Of a stretch of DNA of 64,000 bases, positions 26,721 through 59,299 are shown piece by piece. Each line of letters starts with the position of its first letter. The stretch's first letter is position 1. The notes below the pieces were generated by a model. The model saw only the letters and a list, made by a program, of their open reading frames with translations, did not search any database and was not told where the DNA came from. The translations under genes were made by a program, and so were the position numbers. The stretch lies in NCBI GenBank assembly GCA_002477465.1, contig DLPV01000026.1, forward strand, positions 14,597-78,596, read 5' to 3'. Origin of the DNA: Gammaproteobacteria bacterium UBA7449. GTDB lineage: Bacteria > Pseudomonadota > Gammaproteobacteria > Pseudomonadales > Pseudohongiellaceae.

Positions 26721-27025
26721 CTACTCACCTCTAAAAACTCTGTTATTGAAAACCCGCAGGCCGGAGAATTGGCCTGCCGCGAAACTTTAGCGTTTGTTAC
26801 TCGATTTGTGACTAACATCTCAATGATTGTCATTATGCAGAAGCCCGTAGGCAAAATGCGTTAACTACCTCACAAATTTGATGGGAAGCCTCGCGGAATT
26901 TTGCAAGTAGTCTATTGAAGCGGGATTTTTCTGACGAATTCGCGCCTTATGGTAGACTCTGCCCCCCAGTTTGGGTGCAGACTCTCTTCACCCATCTAAG
27001 CAAAATCAGCACAGGAAATTGGAGC

Positions 27026-28210
27026 ATGAGCAGAGTCTTGGAAGGAATTCGCGTTTTGGACTTCGGGCGTTATATAGCAGGCCCTTACTGCGCCACACTA
27101 CTTGGAGACATGGGTGCAGACGTCATCAGAATAGAAAAAGTCGATGGCTCCGAGGACCGTTTTTTGTCGCCAGTTACTGAGAATGGTGACGGCGCCATGT
27201 TTATGCAGCTGGCTCGCAACAAGCGCGGCCTGACCCTGAATCCGATGAAGCCAGCTGGCCGCGAAATTGTGAAAAAACTGGTGGCGACTGCAGACGTGGT
27301 GGTAGCCAACCTGCCCCCCGACACGCTCAAGGCGATGGGATTAGATTACGAGAGCCTGTCAGCGATCAAACCAGACATCATACTTACCATGATCTCGGCT
27401 TTTGGTCGCGGTGGTCCCTATTCAAACCGGGTAGGCTTTGATGGTCTGGGACAGGCCATGTCCGGCAATATGTACATGTCGGGTACACCGGAGCAACCGG
27501 TTAAGGCCTATGCGCCGTTCATCGATTTCGGCACCGCCAGCCTCTCTGCCTTTGGCACCATGGCAGCCTTGTTTGAGCGCCAAAAGACCGGCAAAGGCCA
27601 AATCGTTGAGGGCGCCCTTTTCAATACCGCCCTGACCATGATGAATGCAACCGCAATCGAGCAGAACGCCATTCAGGTCAATCGAGTTGCCACTCTCAAC
27701 CGTTCACAAACCTCGGCTCCCGCTGACACGTTTAAAACCCGGGACGGCTGGGTGCTGGTGCAATCCGTGGGCGGCCCACTGTTTAAACGCTGGGCTGATC
27801 TCATGGGCGAAGACCACTGGCTGGAAGATCCTCGTTTTAAGGACGACATTTCCCGTGGGGACCATGGTGAAATCATCAGTGAGCGTCTCGCAAAATGGTG
27901 CGCGGTAAGAAGCTCTGAAGAGGTGCTCGCCGCCATGGAAGAGGCGCGACTGCCTGCCGGCCCGATCATGTCACCCCAGGAAGTGCTGGAAGACCCCCAT
28001 ATTGAGACCAAGGGCCTGTTCCAAGCGATTGATTACCCTGGCCTCGATAAGCCTGCACCCATTATGCAAACCCCTGTGGAGCTCTCAGAAACACCAGGCG
28101 AGATACGCCATCGGGCACCTACCCTGGGAGAGCATACAGACAGCATCATGCGGGAGCTCGGATATCAGCAGGCAGAGATTGACGAATTACGCGCGCAGCG
28201 AATCATCTGA
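27026..28210 (+). CDS. Family III CoA-transferase (CaiB/BaiF)
   Basis: MSRVLEGIRVLDFGRYIAGPYCATLLGDMGADVIRIEK is the canonical family III N-terminus. Start chosen at 27026 rather than the tracked 26915. Confidence 0.88.
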   Translation: MSRVLEGIRVLDFGRYIAGPYCATLLGDMGADVIRIEKVDGSEDRFLSPVTENGDGAMFMQLARNKRGLTLNPMKPAGREIVKKLVATADVVVANLPPDTLKAMGLDYESLSAIKPDIILTMISAFGRGGPYSNRVGFDGLGQAMSGNMYMSGTPEQPVKAYAPFIDFGTASLSAFGTMAALFERQKTGKGQIVEGALFNTALTMMNATAIEQNAIQVNRVATLNRSQTSAPADTFKTRDGWVLVQSVGGPLFKRWADLMGEDHWLEDPRFKDDISRGDHGEIISERLAKWCAVRSSEEVLAAMEEARLPAGPIMSPQEVLEDPHIETKGLFQAIDYPGLDKPAPIMQTPVELSETPGEIRHRAPTLGEHTDSIMRELGYQQAEIDELRAQRII

Positions 28211-28295
28211 ACGCTCGGTGTTTGCACATTGGTCAGACTCGGTTAGTCTTGTGCCTTCTTCAGACTGCTCTCAACAAGCCAGGTCAGGAATAAAT

Positions 28296-29543
28296 ATGTA
28301 TAAGAACAACAACAGCCGCCGCAATTTTTTAAAGAAAAGTACAGCCCTGCTTGCCGGCACAGGTGCTCTTAAGTCACTGGCAGCTGGCGCTCAAACCCAA
28401 ACTGAAGAGGACTTCTGGCAACAGGTCAGGTCTCAATTTGCGTTCACCGAGAATGCCGTCCCCATGAACGCCGCCAATCTGTGCCCCGCTTTTCGGGCCG
28501 TGACCGACAGCGTGGAGCACTTTACCGCTGACATTGATATCGATTGCTCATTCAATAACCGGGCAAAATTTTCAGAACTGCTGGAACAATGTCGAAGCCG
28601 GATTGCTGGCCAGCTCAATGTATCGTCCGACGAAATTGCCCTGGTGAGAAATACCAGCGAAGCCAACAACATGATCAACAACGGCCTGTCTCTCGAGGCC
28701 GGCGATGAAATTTTGCTATGGGATCAAAACCACCCGACCAATAATGTGGCCTGGGATGTCAGGGCTGAACGATTTGACCTCAGGGTCAGGCGGGTCACAA
28801 CACCAACTCAACCGCAATCCAAAGCTGAACTGGTTTCCGCTTTCACCAGCCAGTTTACGGATGCTACCCGCGTATTGGCTATTACCCAGGTATCAAACGT
28901 TAGCGGCATCCAGCTCCCGATTGCTGAGCTGGTAGCTGCAGCCCATGATCGCGGCATCTACGTCCATGTCGATGGCGCCCAATCCTGGGGCGCGCTGGCG
29001 CTGGACTTGCGCGCGCTGGACGTGGACTCATACAGCGCCAGTGCCCACAAATGGTATATGGGCCCCCGGGAAGTTGGCCTGCTCTATGTAAAATCGGACA
29101 ACATTGACCGAATTTGGCCAAGCGTTATTGCGCCGGGTTGGGGCAATGATGCAGAAACAGATCTATTGGGCGCGAGAAAATTTGAATCTCTAGGCCAGCG
29201 CGACGATGCTGCATTGGCGGCACTGGGCACTGCAGCAGCCCTTCACGACGAAATCGGCCCTGAACGCATTGAGCAGCGCATCAGCTTCCTGACTCAGCGA
29301 TTGAAAACCGGGATAAGCGCGGCCAAGCTGTCACTGGTAACGCCCATGTCAGCCGAACTCAGCCACGGCGTTTGTATAACCCGCGTGAGTAGCGGTAACG
29401 GGGGCGCCATCAGCAATCAGCTCTACACGGACTACGGAATTGCGGGTGCAGCCACCGGAGGCTTGCGGCTTAGCCCCACCATATACAATACGGTTGAACA
29501 TATTGACCGCGCCATAGCTGCCGTAAGCAAACTGCTGGGCTAG
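28296..29543 (+). CDS. Class V aminotransferase-fold PLP enzyme (cysteine desulfurase/epimerase-like) with twin-arginine signal peptide
   Basis: Tat motif SRRNFLKKSTALLAGTGALKSLAAGA at the N-terminus (ATG 28296) and a PLP-lysine region SASAHKWYMGP. The tracked ORF (28002) overlaps the CoA-transferase 3' end and is too long. Confidence 0.75.
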   Translation: MYKNNNSRRNFLKKSTALLAGTGALKSLAAGAQTQTEEDFWQQVRSQFAFTENAVPMNAANLCPAFRAVTDSVEHFTADIDIDCSFNNRAKFSELLEQCRSRIAGQLNVSSDEIALVRNTSEANNMINNGLSLEAGDEILLWDQNHPTNNVAWDVRAERFDLRVRRVTTPTQPQSKAELVSAFTSQFTDATRVLAITQVSNVSGIQLPIAELVAAAHDRGIYVHVDGAQSWGALALDLRALDVDSYSASAHKWYMGPREVGLLYVKSDNIDRIWPSVIAPGWGNDAETDLLGARKFESLGQRDDAALAALGTAAALHDEIGPERIEQRISFLTQRLKTGISAAKLSLVTPMSAELSHGVCITRVSSGNGGAISNQLYTDYGIAGAATGGLRLSPTIYNTVEHIDRAIAAVSKLLG

Positions 29544-30789: not shown

Positions 30790-30819
30790 TTTAGCACCTA
30801 AGCTTCTGATGTGAACAAG

Positions 30820-31089
30820 CTATTTGCCGCGAATCTGAACTGCGCCATTAGTAAATTCGTTATAGGCTGAGTTGCCACGAATTGTTTCAATGAGCTGAGC
30901 TGCAGTGTTAGGGTGCGCCGCATTGGCCCGCGTATTCAGAAAGAAGACTGGCACGTCGCCCAAAAAGTGGCTTAGCTCAGCCAACTAAATCAAATTTCTT
31001 GAGTCGATCTATAACCATTTCTGACCGGTTGCGGGCTCAAGCACCGTGCCTGCCCTGATGATGGCGACGTCTACTTCAATAGTGTTCAT
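30820..31089 (-). pseudogene. Decayed small ORF (89 codons) interrupted by two in-frame TAG codons
   Basis: GGAG-ATG start at 31089. A single frame reads MNTIEVDVAIIRAGTVLEPATGQKWL*IDSRNLI*LAELSHFLGDVPVFFLNTRANAAHPNTAAQLIETIRGNSAYNEFTNGAVQIRGK*. Internal stops are at 31009-31011 and 30985-30987. Family not recognised. Confidence 0.35.
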
Positions 31090-31243
31090 GGGTGTTGCTC
31101 CAAAGCGTTTACGGTGTGGAATGCAGCTAGTTTAAGAGTGAATTGGACGGAAATGACACCAACCGTACGCAACCTGACACCAATCGTCGCCCGGTTTTTC
31201 GCGACCAGGCACTTTTTCTCGGCGGCATTAGTGGTTATTCTCA

Positions 31244-32152
31244 ATGCTGAATATTCAAGGATTCGAGACCATCGTGAATAAAACTTATGACGTTCCCTAT
31301 ATGGAGCGTACCCGGCTTTACTATGAGGCTCAGGGTTACTCAGAGCCTTATCTGTGGGCGCATTTCGCCACTACCCCATTTTCAGCTTTGCAAAAACCCC
31401 TGTCGGAATCCACCGTCAGCCTGATTACCACTGCTATGCCCGATACTGAACAAGGTCGCAGCGAACGCAAGCTGTATTCCAGCCTATCCACACCGGCACC
31501 AAAGACGATGTATACCCTGGGCTTGTCCTGGCATGACACGGTCACCCATACCCGGGATACCGGCAGTTTTCTGCCCATCGAGCCGCTATTGGTTGTCCAG
31601 GACGAAGGCGGCATAGGCAGCCTGGCACCGCGCTTTCATTCAGTCCCCACCGCCTATAGCCAGCGTCAGACGCTAGAAGAAGATGCGCCTGAATTATTGG
31701 AGCGACTGCAAGAGGATCAGGCTGACGTCGCCCTGCTGGTGCCGTTGTGACCCGTATGCCACCAGACCGTGAGTCTGGTTGCTCGCCACCTTGAGAGTCA
31801 CGGCATAGCCACGGTAATAATTGGCAGCGCCATGGATATTATCGAGCATGTTGGCGTACCGCGTTATTTGCACACCGATTTCCCCCTGGGTAATCCGCTT
31901 GGCAACCCCTTCGACCGAGATATGCAGTTGAGCCATACCAGTATGGCGCTGGAACTGCTGCGATCCGCAAGCGAGGCAAACACAATTCAGCGCTCGCCTT
32001 ACAGCTGGGATGGCGATCCAGGCTGGCGCGATGATTACTCGAAAGTCACCAATGAGAATCGCGCAGAGTTGGCACAAGCCGGCGAAGCCCGTCGAGCCCT
32101 GCAGACTGAAATGAAGAAACTCAACCCAAGGCAGCTGATACCAAACCCCTGA
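31244..32152 (+). CDS. GrdB/PrdB-family (glycine/sarcosine/betaine/D-proline reductase selenoprotein B-like) protein; candidate selenoprotein with UGA(Sec) at 31748-31750
   Basis: Tracked ORFs 31244-31750 and 31769-32152 are in the same frame, separated only by TGA. The joined protein reads ..ADVALLVPL-U-PVCHQTVSLVARHLESHGIATVIIG...DFPLGNPLGNPFD. This matches my recollection of the LVP(V/L)(C/U)PxC ... FPLGxPLGxP pattern of proteobacterial GRDB-domain proteins. A SECIS-like hairpin follows. Confidence 0.65.
31758..31782 (+). promoter_or_regulatory. SECIS-like stem-loop downstream of the in-frame UGA
   Basis: GCCACCAGAC-CGUGA-GUCUGGUUGC: 6 perfect bp (31762-31767/31773-31778), then A-U, one C/U mismatch and 2 GC pairs. 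The 5-nt apical loop contains GU and starts 17 nt after the UGA. Confidence 0.55.
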
Positions 32153-32193
32153 TATCAACTGCAAATAATTGAAACGAACAACGAGAGGCCACT

Positions 32194-33063
32194 ATGAAAA
32201 CAACAAAATTCTTCCTCGGCAGTGTTCTAACGGGAGTCATTATCATTCAAAGCGCGCTGACTCAAGCCCAGGGCGTGCGCATGTACAATACGGTCAAGAC
32301 CAAGCTCATGGCGGGAGAGCAGGTAGTTGGAGGCACCGTCGAAACTGCAGACCCGGATATCTACTGCGCTATGGCTAATGCCGGCTTCGATTTCATCTGG
32401 ATCGAGATGCAACACAGCCCCCTGTCCTTTAGCGAGGTCGCGCGCATGATCTGGGCCTGCCGCGATGCGCCAGCTATTCCCTTCATCCGCGTGCCTGATG
32501 ACTCCGAAGGCGCTATTCAGAAGGCAACCGATATCGGTGCTCTTGGCATTATAGTCCCCATGGTTGATACCCCGGAGAAAATGGAAAATGCCGTGCGCCA
32601 CGCCAAGTATCCCCCAGCCGGCAGGCGCAGTCAGGGCGGTGGCCAATATGGGCGCCTCTGGGGACGCGACTATCGCCAGACCTGGAATGACAACGTCATG
32701 ATTATGGCCATGATCGAAACCCTGGAGGGAACTGAGGCATCAGCTGCTATCGCAGCGGTGGATGGCGTGGATGGCATGTTCGTTGCCAGTGGCGATTTGG
32801 GCAGCTTTAGCGGCACGCGCCAGGGGGATCGGGAATATGAAGCCCTGGTGACTCAAATCAAGCAAGAGACCGAGGCGGCCGGCAAATTTGTCGGCGGCCC
32901 CTCTGCCTGGATGTCTGCGCGGGACGGCTACGATTTTTTTCAAGCTCCCAGCACCAGCAGCCTGATTCGGATTGGCGCGAGACTGACTCTGGAGCAAGCC
33001 GACCCCTGTCGGTTCCTGCCTTCCGGTGCAACACCAGTGGAAGGTGAGAACCCCTGCCCCTGA
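32194..33063 (+). CDS. HpcH/HpaI-family aldolase with N-terminal Sec-type signal peptide
   Basis: Signal-like N-terminus (MKTTKFFLGSVLTGVIIIQSALTQAQG) followed by the HpcH/HpaI core (GFDFIWIEMQHSP, IRVP, GIIVPMV). Confidence 0.7.
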   Translation: MKTTKFFLGSVLTGVIIIQSALTQAQGVRMYNTVKTKLMAGEQVVGGTVETADPDIYCAMANAGFDFIWIEMQHSPLSFSEVARMIWACRDAPAIPFIRVPDDSEGAIQKATDIGALGIIVPMVDTPEKMENAVRHAKYPPAGRRSQGGGQYGRLWGRDYRQTWNDNVMIMAMIETLEGTEASAAIAAVDGVDGMFVASGDLGSFSGTRQGDREYEALVTQIKQETEAAGKFVGGPSAWMSARDGYDFFQAPSTSSLIRIGARLTLEQADPCRFLPSGATPVEGENPCP

Positions 33064-37608: not shown

Positions 37609-38775
37609 TTAATAGGAACGCGGCAATCCTAATTCGTGCTCCGAAATAAAATTCAGAATCATCTCCTGTGAGATTGGAGCCAGTTTCATCAGGCGCGCCT
37701 CTCGCCAGTAGCGTTCTACATGATACTCCCTGGCGTAGCCAAAACCACCGTGAGTTTGTATCGCGGCATCAGCGGCGAAAAAGCCTGCCTCGGCCGCTAA
37801 CCATTTCGCCATATTGGCTTCGGTACCGCAGGGCAACCCCTGATCAAGCTTCCAGGCTGCCTTCTGCACCATCAGTTCCGCTGCATCCAGTCGCGTTCTG
37901 GCTTCAGCCAGAGGAAACGCGATGCCCTGATTTTGCCCGATAGGCCGACCAAAAACGATTCTTTCATTAGCATAATTAACTGCGCGGCGGAGGGCCGCTC
38001 GACCAATGCCCACTGCCTCAGCAGCAATCAAAATTCGTTCCGCGTTGAGGCCATCCAGCAGATAACGAAAGCCCTGTCCCTCTTCTCCCACACGATCAGC
38101 TTCACTTACGAGGAGTTCATCATACACAACCTCGCAGGTCCTCACGGCGTTTCGCCCCAGTTTTGGGATCGGTGAAATGGAGACTTCGGGCTTGTTCAAT
38201 TCGGCAAACAACAGGGTCATACCCTCTGTCTTGCGCGCTACGCTGTCTTTGCTCTGGGTGCGAACCAGCAGCAGGACCCGCTCTGCCTCGATAGCCTTGG
38301 TTGTCCAAACTTTCCTGCCCTTAACGACATAGTTACCACCCTCGCGACGAGCGCTGGTCTCTATCGACGTTGTATCACTACCAGCATTGGGCTCAGTAAC
38401 GCCAAATGCGACCTGAAGCTTGCCAGACGCCACATCAGGCAGATAGCGGGATTTCATCGCTTCCGAACCATGTTTAATCACCGGGTGCATGCCAAACATG
38501 GAAAGATGCAAGGGTGTCGCACCATTCATCGCTGCGCCGGAGGCTGCGACCTGCTCCAGCACCACAGCAGCCTCTTGCACACCCTTGCCGGCACCACCAT
38601 AAGACTCAGGAATCGCTATTCCAATCCATCCCGCGGTTGCCATCGCATCATAAAAATCCTGGGGATACTTTCCCTCGCGATCATGGGCCTCCCAATAATC
38701 ATCAGGAAAATCGCGACAAATTCTGGCAACCGCCTCGCGAATGAGTTTGAGATCTTCAGATTCGAAAAAATCCAC
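37609..38775 (-). CDS. Acyl-CoA dehydrogenase family protein
   Basis: ACAD motifs (FGVTEPNAGSD, GGFGY..E..VERY.R). 388 aa. Confidence 0.88.
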   Translation of the reverse strand: MDFFESEDLKLIREAVARICRDFPDDYWEAHDREGKYPQDFYDAMATAGWIGIAIPESYGGAGKGVQEAAVVLEQVAASGAAMNGATPLHLSMFGMHPVIKHGSEAMKSRYLPDVASGKLQVAFGVTEPNAGSDTTSIETSARREGGNYVVKGRKVWTTKAIEAERVLLLVRTQSKDSVARKTEGMTLLFAELNKPEVSISPIPKLGRNAVRTCEVVYDELLVSEADRVGEEGQGFRYLLDGLNAERILIAAEAVGIGRAALRRAVNYANERIVFGRPIGQNQGIAFPLAEARTRLDAAELMVQKAAWKLDQGLPCGTEANMAKWLAAEAGFFAADAAIQTHGGFGYAREYHVERYWREARLMKLAPISQEMILNFISEHELGLPRSY

Positions 38776-38783
38776 AGTGAAAC

Positions 38784-39704
38784 CTAGCTGGACTGGCCGC
38801 TGATGTGCGCGGCAATAGCAAGAATCTGTTGGGCCCGCTTGAGATGTGGCACATCAACCATTTGTCCCTTGTAGGCAAAAGCCATTTTGCCACTCGACTT
38901 ATTATCAGCGAAGGCGGCAAGCAATTCTTTGGCTTCGGCTATTTCGGCGTGGCTAGGCGTAAAAGCGCGGTTGACGATATCTACCTGACCCGGGTGAATC
39001 GTCAACTTGCCGCGGAAGCCCATAGCAGCAGCCTCCATACACTCTTTCTCCAACCCCTGGCTATCGGAAATTTCTACATATACTGAGTCGATAGGCTGCA
39101 CGTTACTGGCTACCGCAGCGAGCAAGCAAGTTGATCTCACATAGCGAAACACATCGAGGTACTCGCCTTCAGCATTACGTTTGGACTTGGATCCCAGCGC
39201 GCCGGCAAGATCTTCTGCGCCCCAGGTTAGTCCATCGACACGCGTATTACCCCCCATGGTTGGTAGTGCAAACACAGCCTCAGGCGCTTCCGTTCCAATG
39301 AGGAGCAATGAAATAGCGCCAGATGTCACTCCATATTTTTTCTCCAGAGCGGTAACAAGCTGATCTACCGCGTCAACATTGGCCCGATTAAGCACCTTCG
39401 GCAGCATTAAACCATCAGGTGTCGCTGCCACGACCGCCTCCAGGTCCTCCCTACCCCAAGGGGAGTCCTGGGGATTGATTCGCACCAGGCACTCTTGTGC
39501 GCCAAAATCGGCCTGACTAATCCAGTCGCACACGGCCTGCCGTGCATCGGCCTTGTTCTCCGGGGTGACGGAATCCTCCAGATCCAGAATCAGGCTGTCA
39601 GCATTCAAGCTCAATGCTTTCTCAAACATACGCGCATTGCCGCCAGGCACAAAATGCAGCGAGCGGCGCAAACCTTTGGCACCTGGGCTGGGAGTTACGG
39701 CCAT
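38784..39704 (-). CDS. CitE/HpcH-family acyl-CoA lyase (citramalyl-/malyl-/hydroxyacyl-CoA lyase-like)
   Basis: LRRSLHFVPG.N..M.EKA....AD..ILDLEDSV N-terminus typical of CitE-like lyases. It starts 9 nt before the ACAD gene. Confidence 0.8.
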   Translation of the reverse strand: MAVTPSPGAKGLRRSLHFVPGGNARMFEKALSLNADSLILDLEDSVTPENKADARQAVCDWISQADFGAQECLVRINPQDSPWGREDLEAVVAATPDGLMLPKVLNRANVDAVDQLVTALEKKYGVTSGAISLLLIGTEAPEAVFALPTMGGNTRVDGLTWGAEDLAGALGSKSKRNAEGEYLDVFRYVRSTCLLAAVASNVQPIDSVYVEISDSQGLEKECMEAAAMGFRGKLTIHPGQVDIVNRAFTPSHAEIAEAKELLAAFADNKSSGKMAFAYKGQMVDVPHLKRAQQILAIAAHISGQSS

Positions 39705-39706
39705 GA

Positions 39707-40177
39707 CTAGTCCTTGTTCTCTTGATGGGAGGGTGATCGCAACATCATGCCTTTACGCAGACAATCACAGACGACTTCGCCACGCTGATTTAGCGCAAGG
39801 TGACGAAACCAGACGATGCCACGGTCCGGCTTGGTCCGGGATTCACGCTTGTCCATAATTTCCGTGGAAACGCTGAGTGTGTCCCCAAGAAAAACAGGAT
39901 TGGGAAACTCTGTCTTTTCCATTCCCAGATTGCCAATGGTGGTGCCAAGCGTGGTGTCAGCAACCGACAGGCCTACTACCAGACCCAGGGTAAACAGGCT
40001 ATTGACGAGTATCTGCCCGCGTTGCGATTGACTGGCAAACTCCGCATCAAGGTGCAGAGGTTGTGGATTGTGGGTAAGCGCACTAAAAAGCAGGTTGTCT
40101 GTTTCAGTAATAGTACGATGGGGCTGATGCTCAAACACCATTCCCACTTCCAGTTCTTCGAAGTACTTGCCAGACAC
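39707..40177 (-). CDS. MaoC-family (R)-specific enoyl-CoA hydratase/dehydratase, single hot-dog
   Basis: YFEEL.VG..F.H....ITE.D...F..L..N.QPLH.D and a 156-aa hot-dog size. Its stop is 3 nt from the CitE-like start. Confidence 0.8.
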   Translation of the reverse strand: MSGKYFEELEVGMVFEHQPHRTITETDNLLFSALTHNPQPLHLDAEFASQSQRGQILVNSLFTLGLVVGLSVADTTLGTTIGNLGMEKTEFPNPVFLGDTLSVSTEIMDKRESRTKPDRGIVWFRHLALNQRGEVVCDCLRKGMMLRSPSHQENKD

Positions 40178-40286
40178 AGTTAAACCGCCAAAGACTCAGA
40201 CTTTTCAATAAGACCACATTGTAGTGGCAACATCCCATGGCATCCATTAAATTCCCTAAGCAAATTGGGACGGGGGATTGCTCGCA

Positions 40287-41135
40287 ATGAACGAAATCAA
40301 GCTGCAACAATGGATCGACAGAAATGAGACTGTCGATGACATTATAGGTCTCACACCTGCGCGGGCCCTGGCCGCCACCTTTAATCGCCAGACTGAGTTC
40401 TTCGCCCAGAGCCAGCTTCCCGCCCTTTGGCACTGGCTGTATTTTCTTGAAACTGCCGCCCAGCAAGACCTGGCCCCTGACGGCCACCGGCAGCGCGGTG
40501 GCTTTTTACCTCCCATCATCCTGCCTCGCCGCATGTGGGCAGGCAGTCAGCTGCAGTTTCACCTGCCAGTCAATATCGGCGACCCGCTCACTCGCAGTTC
40601 AACCATCCACAGCATCAAAGAAAAGACAGGCCGCAGTGGTAGCCTGGCTTTTGTTAAGGTTCAGCACGAGATTTCCCGGTCGGGACAGCTCTGCATCACC
40701 GAATCCCAGGACATCGTCTATCGCGAGGCTGCAAAGCCAGGCGCATCACTCCCTGCTGGCGAACCTGCAGACTCCGTCAGCGATTTCCAGCTGCAATTTC
40801 AGGCAGATTCACGCCTGCTGTTTCGATATTCTGCGCTCACCTTCAATGCCCACCGCATTCACTATGACACCCCATATGTTGCCGGGGTCGAGGGGTACCC
40901 TGGGCTTATCGTACATGGACCTCTGCTGGCGACCATGATGCTGGAGCTACTGTGGCAAAACCTGCCGGAGGCCCAGCTAAGCGCCTTCGAATTCAAGGCC
41001 CTTCGGCCCGTATTTGACAACAAAGCCTGCACCATCCGCGCCACCAGCCCTGACAGCGAGGGCAATGTCCGACTCTGGGTCGCAGACCATGAAGGAGCCC
41101 TCTGCATGCAGGGCCAGGCCATTATCCGACCCTAG
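40287..41135 (+). CDS. Double hot-dog MaoC/HTD2-like acyl-CoA hydratase (itaconyl-/mesaconyl-CoA hydratase-like)
   Basis: C-terminal half has FNAHRIHYDTPYVAGVEGYPGLIVHGPL (MaoC-like). The N-terminal half resembles the FAS1-like dehydratase N-domain. ATG at 40287. Confidence 0.65.
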   Translation: MNEIKLQQWIDRNETVDDIIGLTPARALAATFNRQTEFFAQSQLPALWHWLYFLETAAQQDLAPDGHRQRGGFLPPIILPRRMWAGSQLQFHLPVNIGDPLTRSSTIHSIKEKTGRSGSLAFVKVQHEISRSGQLCITESQDIVYREAAKPGASLPAGEPADSVSDFQLQFQADSRLLFRYSALTFNAHRIHYDTPYVAGVEGYPGLIVHGPLLATMMLELLWQNLPEAQLSAFEFKALRPVFDNKACTIRATSPDSEGNVRLWVADHEGALCMQGQAIIRP

Positions 41136-57970: not shown

Positions 57971-59299
57971 CTAAGTAGCCTCTCCATGAAATGGTTCAAC
58001 CCTGATCCGCATAATTGCACCAGTGATCTCTTCAAGATTTTCCAAGGCAGCCATGGCTTTGTTTAGCTTAGCTTCCTTCACACGGTGGGTGAGAATAACA
58101 ATAGGGACACTCTCATTACTCGCCGCCTCTTTCTGTATGATCGCTTCAATACTGATTTCCTGATCCTGAAGCACATTAGAAATCTTTGCCATCACGCCAA
58201 CCCTGTCGATAACCGGAATTCTCAGATAGTACTCCGCATCGATCTCTTCGATTGCGAGCACCGGCGAATCATTGGAGGCATCTCGATAGCCCAGAGCTGG
58301 ATACACCGGAAATGTGGCACCCGCAACCACCTGACGCGCAAGGTCGATAAGATCCGCGACCACTGCAGAGGCAGTAGCCTCCGCGCCGGCGCCCGGACCG
58401 CTATACAGCGTGGAGCCCACGAAGTCTCCCTGCACCAGTATGGCATTGCCGACACCATTAACGTTTGCCAGTAGCCTTGATTTAGCCACCAGGGTTGGGT
58501 GGACCCGCATCTCGATGCCGCTTTCCGTCTTGCGCGCGATACCAAGATGCTTTACTTCATAGCCAAGCTCATTGGCATAATTAATATCATCAGGCGTGAC
58601 CTTGCTTATTCCCTCAGTGTAAGTCTTGTCGAATTGCAGAGGTATGCCAAATGCGATTGATGCCATGATCGTGAGCTTATGCGCCGCATCTATTCCTTCG
58701 ACATCGAAGGTTGGATCAGCTTCAGCGTAACCCAACTCTTGCGCCTCCTGCAGCACATCGGCGAACTGGCTCTGGTTTGCCGTCATCTCGGACAGGATAA
58801 AGTTTCCGGTGCCGTTAATTATTCCCGCCAGCCACTCAATTTCATTTGCAGCGAGCCCTTCACGCAAGGCCTTAATGATGGGAATGCCGCCAGCAACGCT
58901 ACTCTCGAATGCAAGCGTCACAGCTTTCTCTCGCGCGAGAGCAAACAGCTCGTTCCCTTTTTCCGCAATCAGGGCCTTATTTGCGGTCACCACATGTTTG
59001 CCGCTGGTCAGTGCAGTCTTGATTACATCGAAGGCAACGTCATAGCCGCCAATTGTCTCCACAACGACGTCGACGCTGGGATCTGCAGCTAACGCCAGGG
59101 GATCGTCTCCAGAATGGGCTACGTTTTGGCAGAGCTCTGGCTTTGGGGTGCGGGTTGCGACATGGGTGACAACTATTTCACAGCCGCTGCGCCGGGTGAT
59201 GGTTTCCTTGTTTTCTTCCAGGAGGCGCAGGGTACCTGCGCCCACTGTCCCCAGACCGCAAATTCCAATTCTGAGTTGTGTCGGTGTGTGCTGGGTCAA
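57971..59299 (-). CDS. hom: Homoserine dehydrogenase
   Basis: GICGLGTVG NAD fold, the catalytic region and a C-terminal ACT domain. It sits in the conserved dsbC-hom-thrC-recJ order. Confidence 0.94.
   Translation of the reverse strand: MTQHTPTQLRIGICGLGTVGAGTLRLLEENKETITRRSGCEIVVTHVATRTPKPELCQNVAHSGDDPLALAADPSVDVVVETIGGYDVAFDVIKTALTSGKHVVTANKALIAEKGNELFALAREKAVTLAFESSVAGGIPIIKALREGLAANEIEWLAGIINGTGNFILSEMTANQSQFADVLQEAQELGYAEADPTFDVEGIDAAHKLTIMASIAFGIPLQFDKTYTEGISKVTPDDINYANELGYEVKHLGIARKTESGIEMRVHPTLVAKSRLLANVNGVGNAILVQGDFVGSTLYSGPGAGAEATASAVVADLIDLARQVVAGATFPVYPALGYRDASNDSPVLAIEEIDAEYYLRIPVIDRVGVMAKISNVLQDQEISIEAIIQKEAASNESVPIVILTHRVKEAKLNKAMAALENLEEITGAIMRIRVEPFHGEAT

Follow-up and report, generated by a model that had tools for sequence, protein, structure and literature searches.

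Layout of the locus

Positions 31244-32152 on the plus strand of the window, by which we denote the whole stretch of 64,000 nucleotides that was analysed, hold 302 sense codons, and the sole internal stop in their translation is a UGA at codon 169 (31748-31750). An earlier, sequence-only reading of this DNA had claimed that the open reading frame 31244-31750 and its continuation to 32152 share one frame, and this is borne out, with the single UGA between them. The junction that it had given for read-through, …QADVALLVPL-U-PVCHQTVSLVARHLESHGIATVIIG…DFPLGNPLGNPFD, likewise matches the translation of 31244-32152, and the peptide directly over the junction is LLVPL-U-PVCHQTVSLVAR.

The N-terminal part of the coding sequence (codons 1-168, 31244-31747) is defined by the list of open reading frames, the translation and the homology to the N-terminal half of Cys-containing forms of about 291 amino acids. 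It is followed by the UGA (31748-31750), which we assign, from the Cys found in homologues, as a putative selenocysteine, U169, the first residue of a U-P-V-C redox motif. The codon of Cys172, the predicted resolving cysteine of this UxxC motif, lies at 31757-31759; the residue is at least 90% conserved in the full-length sequences of our alignment A1, and in the other sequence sets the codon is fixed by the search pattern. A predicted SECIS hairpin spans 31758-31782, as judged from its fold, a stem specific to the Sec forms, covariation and codon choice. The C-terminal part of the coding sequence (codons 170-302, 31751-32149) is in frame, free of stops and conserved in both Cys and Sec forms. 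It contains the conserved motif DFPLGNPxGxP (31877-31909) and is terminated by the true stop codon, also a UGA (32150-32152). All of these features are on the plus strand.

There is slight uncertainty over the start codon, for which ATG 31244 and GTG 31274 are the candidates. The former yields a first half of 168 amino acids and the latter one of 158; GTG 31274 is the start called in other assemblies and the better fit to the N-termini of homologues. Note that the ATG has no clear Shine-Dalgarno sequence and that the GTG sits 12 nt past an AAGGA. As 13 of the 42 long open reading frames in the window, including this one, end in TGA, UGA is not globally reassigned and the genetic code is standard. 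Sixteen further in-frame UGA candidates in the window have a redox-like context, and both that were inspected proved spurious, the one at 58658 lying antisense to a homoserine dehydrogenase and the one at 32742 antisense to an HpcH gene. A 156-aa open reading frame on the minus strand (31694-32164) overlaps the gene, and an antisense frame recurs in 49 related loci; it looks like an artefact of codon structure and not like a gene. Scans for promoters and terminators around the gene gave hits at chance level only.

Homologues and conservation

A search of 5.8 billion proteins returned 611 matches. The list is headed by two 168-aa products (92% and 87% identity), both of which stop where the window has its UGA, and the next ~118 of the matches listed are ~291 aa in length and 48-53% identical over ~90% of the query. 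Some of these ~291-aa homologues bear the names 'glycine reductase' or 'PrdB' / 'D-proline reductase (dithiol) PrdB' in the JGI and NCBI collections. In alignment A1 the column of the UGA is occupied by Cys in 17 of 17 full-length homologues (…PL-C-PVCHQT…), in agreement with the earlier proposal that the UGA sits at the redox Cys/Sec of a UxxC motif. Homologues with a residue other than Cys or Sec at this position, which would speak against that assignment, were looked for, and Cys was found throughout the full-length sequences. The downstream motifs GSAxDxxEHxGVPR and DFPLGNPxGxP are conserved in the same alignment, while the remaining cysteines of the Cys forms have given way to different residues in the window protein (V203, L219), so that U169 and C172 constitute its sole conserved Cys/Sec pair.

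At the level of DNA, neither the TGA nor the frame has been lost in three relatives with 87-92% identity (loci L001, L003 and L004). In a comparison of the window with L001, codon changes in the downstream half are synonymous in 32 cases and non-synonymous in 12. The 33 codons that directly follow the UGA differ by 5 synonymous and 0 non-synonymous changes and are the most conserved DNA of the gene. Judged by these codon changes, purifying selection acts on the downstream half in close relatives.

Sec forms were collected by scanning one representative genome per GTDB species with the pattern CCNYTN-TGA-CCNGTNTGYCAYCARAC, which gave at least 120 loci. Every one of the listed loci is a true family member with TGA at the conserved position, and wherever the fetched stretch was long enough the frame continues for 100-140 aa. 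The suggestion that the downstream half is part of the same protein is thus upheld, its 133 codons being conserved in the Cys forms as well as in the at least 120 Sec forms.

Relation to PrdB and GrdB

The joined protein had been assigned to the GrdB/PrdB family; the homology stands, and membership in PrdB or GrdB does not. TIGR04483, the NCBIfam model for PrdB, aligns with residues 46-255, straight through the UGA, at E=3e-23 and over model positions 20-234 of 238, but the 82.4 bits obtained do not reach the equivalog cutoff of 300 bits. The GrdH, GrdF and GrdB models align with residues ~95-240 at E=1e-6 to 4e-9, and TIGR01918 yields 27.3 bits against a cutoff of 65.45 bits. A Pfam search with the joined protein gave no family at E<=1, GRDB (PF07355) included, and as a few homologues do have a precomputed PF07355 match, the superfamily relationship is real but distant. 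Because the curated cutoffs for PrdB, for the GrdB subfamily and for Pfam GRDB are all missed, the protein represents a distinct PrdB-like clade and neither PrdB nor GrdB. By its profile matches, the window gene belongs to a standalone 'PrdB-like' clade, which branches off distantly within the GrdB/PrdB reductase selenoprotein-B superfamily.

Clostridial D-proline reductase PrdB (TIGR04483) is itself a selenoprotein with a UxxC motif (review table, PMC13188914). The window protein is homologous to it over essentially the whole length of PrdB, but has ~45 extra residues at each end. The PrdB-like clade furthermore occurs without the pyruvoyl partner PrdA, without PrdC and without any other conserved neighbour, and it is found in marine and other environmental MAGs of many phyla, whereas clostridial PrdB is found in Stickland fermenters. 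With GrdB, GrdF and GrdH (PF07355, TIGR01918) the window protein shares the UxxC type and a match of residues ~95-240 to the C-terminal ~150 residues of these 435-aa proteins; unlike them, it is devoid of the N-terminal ~270 residues and of a grdA/grdE/grdC context.

We regard it as unlikely, though less so than the other alternatives discussed below, that the gene encodes a genuine D-proline reductase PrdB, or the GrdB of a glycine or betaine reductase. TIGR04483 is indeed the best HMM match, and the PrdB label is used in the names of JGI and NCBI homologues and in two marine metagenome studies (the Sargasso Sea and GOS papers, see below), but the shortfall against both curated cutoffs and the missing Pfam GRDB match argue otherwise, and so does the genomic context. 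Clustering of 200 loci revealed no conserved partner, as the top co-occurring families were present in at most 11 of the 200 and none was PrdA/GrdE-like, and the ten genes flanking the window gene contain no Pfam domain of PrdA/GrdE, PrdC or GrdA. Canonical PrdB and GrdB require a pyruvoyl-bearing partner, PrdA or GrdE (PMC13188914), and since none is a neighbour here, the label 'proline reductase' is probably only a homology name.

We infer that the protein is not a subunit of D-proline reductase, and lean towards regarding the standalone 'PrdB' clade as an autonomous selenol/thiol enzyme that has no fixed partner and is a subunit of neither proline nor glycine reductase. If this holds true, one of the most abundant marine selenoprotein families is wrongly labelled and its chemistry is still awaited. 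The family is abundant in the ocean and has neither a solved structure nor a conserved partner, and the name 'PrdB' is probably misleading.

The hairpin downstream of the UGA

The sequence-only reading had described a hairpin at 31758-31782 with a CGUGA loop 17 nt past the UGA, and this hairpin is recovered when 31740-31810 is folded, in the MFE as well as in the centroid structure. Its core stem of 7 bp (31761-31767 with 31773-31779, ACCAGAC/GUCUGGU) encloses the 5-nt loop CGUGA (31768-31772), which begins 17 nt after the UGA, and is extended by two outer G-C pairs (31758-59 with 31781-82). The 71-nt fold alone is not significant (z = -1.7, with 12 of 200 shuffles folding equally well), so that the support for the hairpin is comparative and not thermodynamic. 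Rfam scans of the whole window at the gathering threshold and of 31600-31900 at permissive settings yielded no SECIS or tRNA-Sec family.

The comparison was made against a control set of 77 Cys-form metagenome genes retrieved with the same pattern, with TGY replacing TGA. Note that in both sets the 5' arm of the hairpin is largely determined by this pattern, with the loop and the 3' arm left free, and that the two sets differ in collection and lineage, a bias that is addressed by a codon control within genes. All seven core pairs are formed in 71% of the Sec forms and in 3% of the Cys forms encoding the same peptide. Nucleotide +26, which pairs with A +18, is U in 119 of 119 Sec forms versus 3 of 77 Cys forms (p=5e-51), and the loop CGUGA is found in 74% and 19%, respectively. 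The Ser codon at the hairpin site is AGU in all 96 Sec forms that have it, while the Cys forms use AGC in 67 cases and AGU in 2. Residue 176 is Val (GUN, placing GU in the loop) in 117 of 119 Sec forms versus about 56% of the Cys forms, which otherwise have I, L, A, T or M, and residue 177 in the Sec forms is limited to NGU codons, i.e. Ser, Gly and Cys. The SECIS thus appears to constrain the protein sequence at codons 175-177 (31766-31774).

The two arms also covary in the Sec forms. Gln CAG/CAA changes together with Leu CUG/UUG (p=4e-11), and His CAC/CAU together with G/A at the first base of codon 10 (p=9e-14), the latter pair coupling a synonymous change to a Val/Ile replacement; in the Cys forms neither covariation is seen (p=0.7 and 1.0). 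As evidenced by pair counting over 119 Sec forms, 94.3% of cells are paired, versus at most 32% in any slid register, and 39 cells are changed on both sides versus 15±2.8 in shuffles, with 0 of 500 shuffles reaching the observed value. In the codon control, hairpin sites were compared with the rest of the same Sec-form genes, which removes the codon bias of the lineage. Ser is encoded by AGU in 98 of 98 cases at the hairpin site versus 9% elsewhere, Val by GUG in 89% versus 38%, Thr by ACC in 90% versus 45% and Leu by YUG in 100% versus 48%. From the restriction of the stem to the Sec forms, the covariation and the codon control, it follows that selection acts on the hairpin as RNA, and does so only in genes with UGA at this codon; the SECIS reading of the hairpin is in turn supported by the specificity of the stem, by covariation and by site-specific codon choice. 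As Sec and Cys forms encode the same peptide, their comparison isolates the RNA-level constraint of the SECIS on a conserved catalytic helix, a clean natural experiment in which this constraint includes an obligatory AGU codon for Ser and a near-fixed Val.

In the SECIS of the E. coli fdhF type, a hairpin lies within the coding region just 3' of the UGA, and SelB binds its apical loop. The hairpin of the window is similarly located in coding sequence, with its core stem starting from 10 nt after the UGA, and has a 5-nt apical loop whose GU is shared by 117 of 119 Sec forms of the PrdB-like family. Unlike the fdhF type, it has no sequence similarity to curated models and no match in Rfam.

Selenocysteine machinery

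No tRNA-Sec was found in the 64-kb window, and a regex scan, a weak test that says little for 64 kb, gave no SelA, SelB or SelD signature. Among ~1.4 Mb of fetched loci, one (L074) holds selB (C-terminal two-thirds, E=2e-38), a thioredoxin-reductase-like gene and a tRNA-Sec, which provides direct evidence that at least one carrier of the Sec form decodes selenocysteine. The order in L074:9-2770 is selB, cut by the edge of the locus, the thioredoxin-reductase-like gene, tRNA-Sec (2267-2362) and a convergent PrdB-like gene, whose stop codon is 8 nt from the end of the tRNA-Sec. Such a cluster of Sec machinery with a member of the PrdB-like family is a rare case.

It is very unlikely that the UGA is instead read through without selenium, by SECIS-independent insertion of near-cognate Trp or Cys, or that the hairpin serves in pausing or mRNA stability. 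The position aligns with the catalytic Cys of a UxxC family that is listed among known selenoproteins, the geometry, with a small GU loop from 17 nt after the UGA, fits that of a bacterial SECIS, the hairpin is absent from the Cys forms, and selB and tRNA-Sec adjoin the homologue in L074.

Distribution and earlier catalogues

The phylum-level range among the listed Sec loci includes Gamma- and Alphaproteobacteria, with Pseudohongiella, Azotimanducaceae and others from the Pseudomonadales, and further Reyranella, Hyphomicrobiaceae and Rhodospirillaceae. Loci from Acidimicrobiia, Myxococcota, Dehalococcoidia, Binatia, Tectomicrobia and Spirochaetales are listed as well. The genome from which the window derives is absent among the at least 120 loci, and the nearest relatives listed there, L020 from a Proteobacteria MAG and L072 from a Pseudohongiella MAG, are 61-62% identical. 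A 168-aa product identical to that of the window is on record in 109 blocks of an assembly collection, and the contigs that contain it include Tara Oceans and other marine metagenome assemblies. On the 24 longest contigs, which were read, the gene calls always consist of two pieces of 168 and 106 aa. The NCBI entry for the product of the window is a truncated 'hypothetical protein [Gammaproteobacteria bacterium]' of 168 aa.

This truncated product of gene callers and NCBI, together with the fact that no Sec machinery is seen in the 64-kb window, would be expected for a pseudogene, or for a sequencing or assembly error, in which a TGY codon for Cys has been mutated or misread to TGA and the downstream half is not expressed. 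We consider this extremely improbable, as the very same product recurs in the 109 blocks, TGA is present at the conserved codon in all of the at least 120 listed loci, the downstream half shows purifying selection, and the hairpin, specific to the TGA form, is maintained by compensatory changes. Two separate genes, one for a 168-aa protein and one for a protein of 106 to 127 aa starting from an internal GTG or ATG, are suggested by the automatic calls of 168 and 106 aa in every assembly, yet are hardly credible in view of Cys-form homologues that are single ~291-aa polypeptides collinear with both halves, a PrdB HMM alignment that is continuous through the junction, a GTG at 31769 that, as had been pointed out from the sequence, lies inside the hairpin loop and has no ribosome-binding site, and the position of the gene's most conserved stretch, past the UGA and ahead of the start called for the second piece.

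The region 31244-32152 is thus very probably a single PrdB-like selenoprotein gene of ~300 aa, with its UGA recoded and the downstream hairpin acting as the SECIS. At the level of sequence comparison, we have demonstrated one gene, a Sec/Cys pairing, a coding downstream half and RNA-level selection for the hairpin only at UGA.

The family itself has been catalogued before, by Zhang, Gladyshev and co-workers. Their Sargasso Sea selenoproteome of 2005 assigned 42 genes with a UxxC motif to 'Proline reductase PrdB' (PMC1088965), and the GOS study of 2008 counted 235 Sec and 110 Cys forms of PrdB, placing it among the most abundant marine selenoproteins (PMC2398784). The Sargasso supplement holds the junction motif of the window, …LLVPLuPVCHQTVGLVARHLESNGIPTV…FTDFPLGNPTG…, with 'PVCHQT' occurring 13 times among its 'Proline reductase PrdB' entries, and the entry AACY01093821 has LLVPLuPVCHQTV…FTDFPLGNP in common with the window protein. 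As the same junction is listed there, the family was already catalogued, and it agrees with ours in the UxxC motif and in marine origin; there is no essential difference, the copy in the window merely being unannotated. Note that 'PrdB' in both papers is a homology label and not a tested function.

The family is therefore a common marine selenoprotein known for two decades, and the novelty is low. Long known and abundant in the sea as it is, the window gene is an ordinary representative, although a real one that is mis-split in public databases, and its findings will hold no surprise for a selenoprotein specialist. Their value is in annotation: the gene and its many relatives are each represented in public databases by a truncated 'hypothetical protein' and an orphan fragment, which should be joined and marked as selenoproteins.

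Structure and proposed mechanism

An AF2 model of the protein (pLDDT 72, pTM 0.78) places U169 between a strand (162-166) and a helix (171-184) whose first turn contains C172. Redox-active CxxC and UxxC motifs usually have this geometry, a strand followed by U or C where a helix begins, and from this location U169-P-V-C172 is most likely a selenol/thiol redox centre. A sequence profile search of the PDB with the protein found nothing, and Foldseek gave no significant neighbour of the AF2 model in the PDB (best E=0.02, TM<0.3), so that the fold allows no functional inference.

In the mechanism that we propose, the most likely role of the hairpin, which lies 10-34 nt downstream of UGA-169, is that of a bacterial SECIS. 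As in E. coli fdhF, SelB·GTP·Sec-tRNA(Sec) would bind to the apical loop with its GU, and the bound complex would deliver selenocysteine at the UGA in place of release factor 2. In the mature protein, Sec169 may then serve as the nucleophile and Cys172 as the resolving residue, with a selenosulfide (Se-S) bond forming between them that would be re-reduced by an external dithiol or flavoprotein system.

Genomic neighbourhood

Disulfide-reductase flavoproteins adjoin the PrdB-like gene only sporadically (L001, L077 and L074), and these occasional neighbours hint at the reductant of the clade. Two candidate disulfide reductases were compared by BLAST with those neighbour ORFs that had been retained, a set that is overlap-filtered and incomplete, and found matches in L001 and L077 only. 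In L001:4566-6991, and also in L002 and L077, an AraC-type regulator and a 478-aa pyridine-nucleotide-disulfide oxidoreductase are located between the hydrolase and the PrdB-like gene, in L001 divergent from the latter; the equivalent interval of the window, 30790-31243, contains neither. The 478-aa oxidoreductase is a possible reductant partner of the PrdB-like protein, and is present in just 2 of the ~200 clustered loci. Two neighbour families that seemed recurrent (fam1 and fam5) were rejected as antisense or GC-frame ORF artefacts.

The neighbours in the window itself are a family-III CoA-transferase, a class-V aminotransferase, an alpha/beta hydrolase, an HpcH aldolase and an amidohydrolase. 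The aminotransferase upstream (28002-29543) belongs to the cysteine desulfurase / selenocysteine lyase superfamily and accompanies the PrdB-like gene in just 4 loci. It carries a twin-arginine-like signal (SRRNFLKKSTALLAGTGAL), which would suggest a periplasmic PLP enzyme. The regions 26915-28210 and 37609-41135 code for a family-III CoA-transferase, an acyl-CoA dehydrogenase, a CitE/HpcH-type lyase, a MaoC hydratase and an Htd2-like hydratase, and from these assignments the surrounding genes would resemble a C5-dicarboxylate CoA-ester pathway of the itaconate/mesaconate type. The HpcH/HpaI aldolase downstream has a signal-peptide-like N-terminus and is paired with the PrdB-like gene in 6 loci. 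Only 41 nt (32153-32193), with no terminator-like site on the plus strand, separate it from the selenoprotein gene, and co-transcription of the two is possible.
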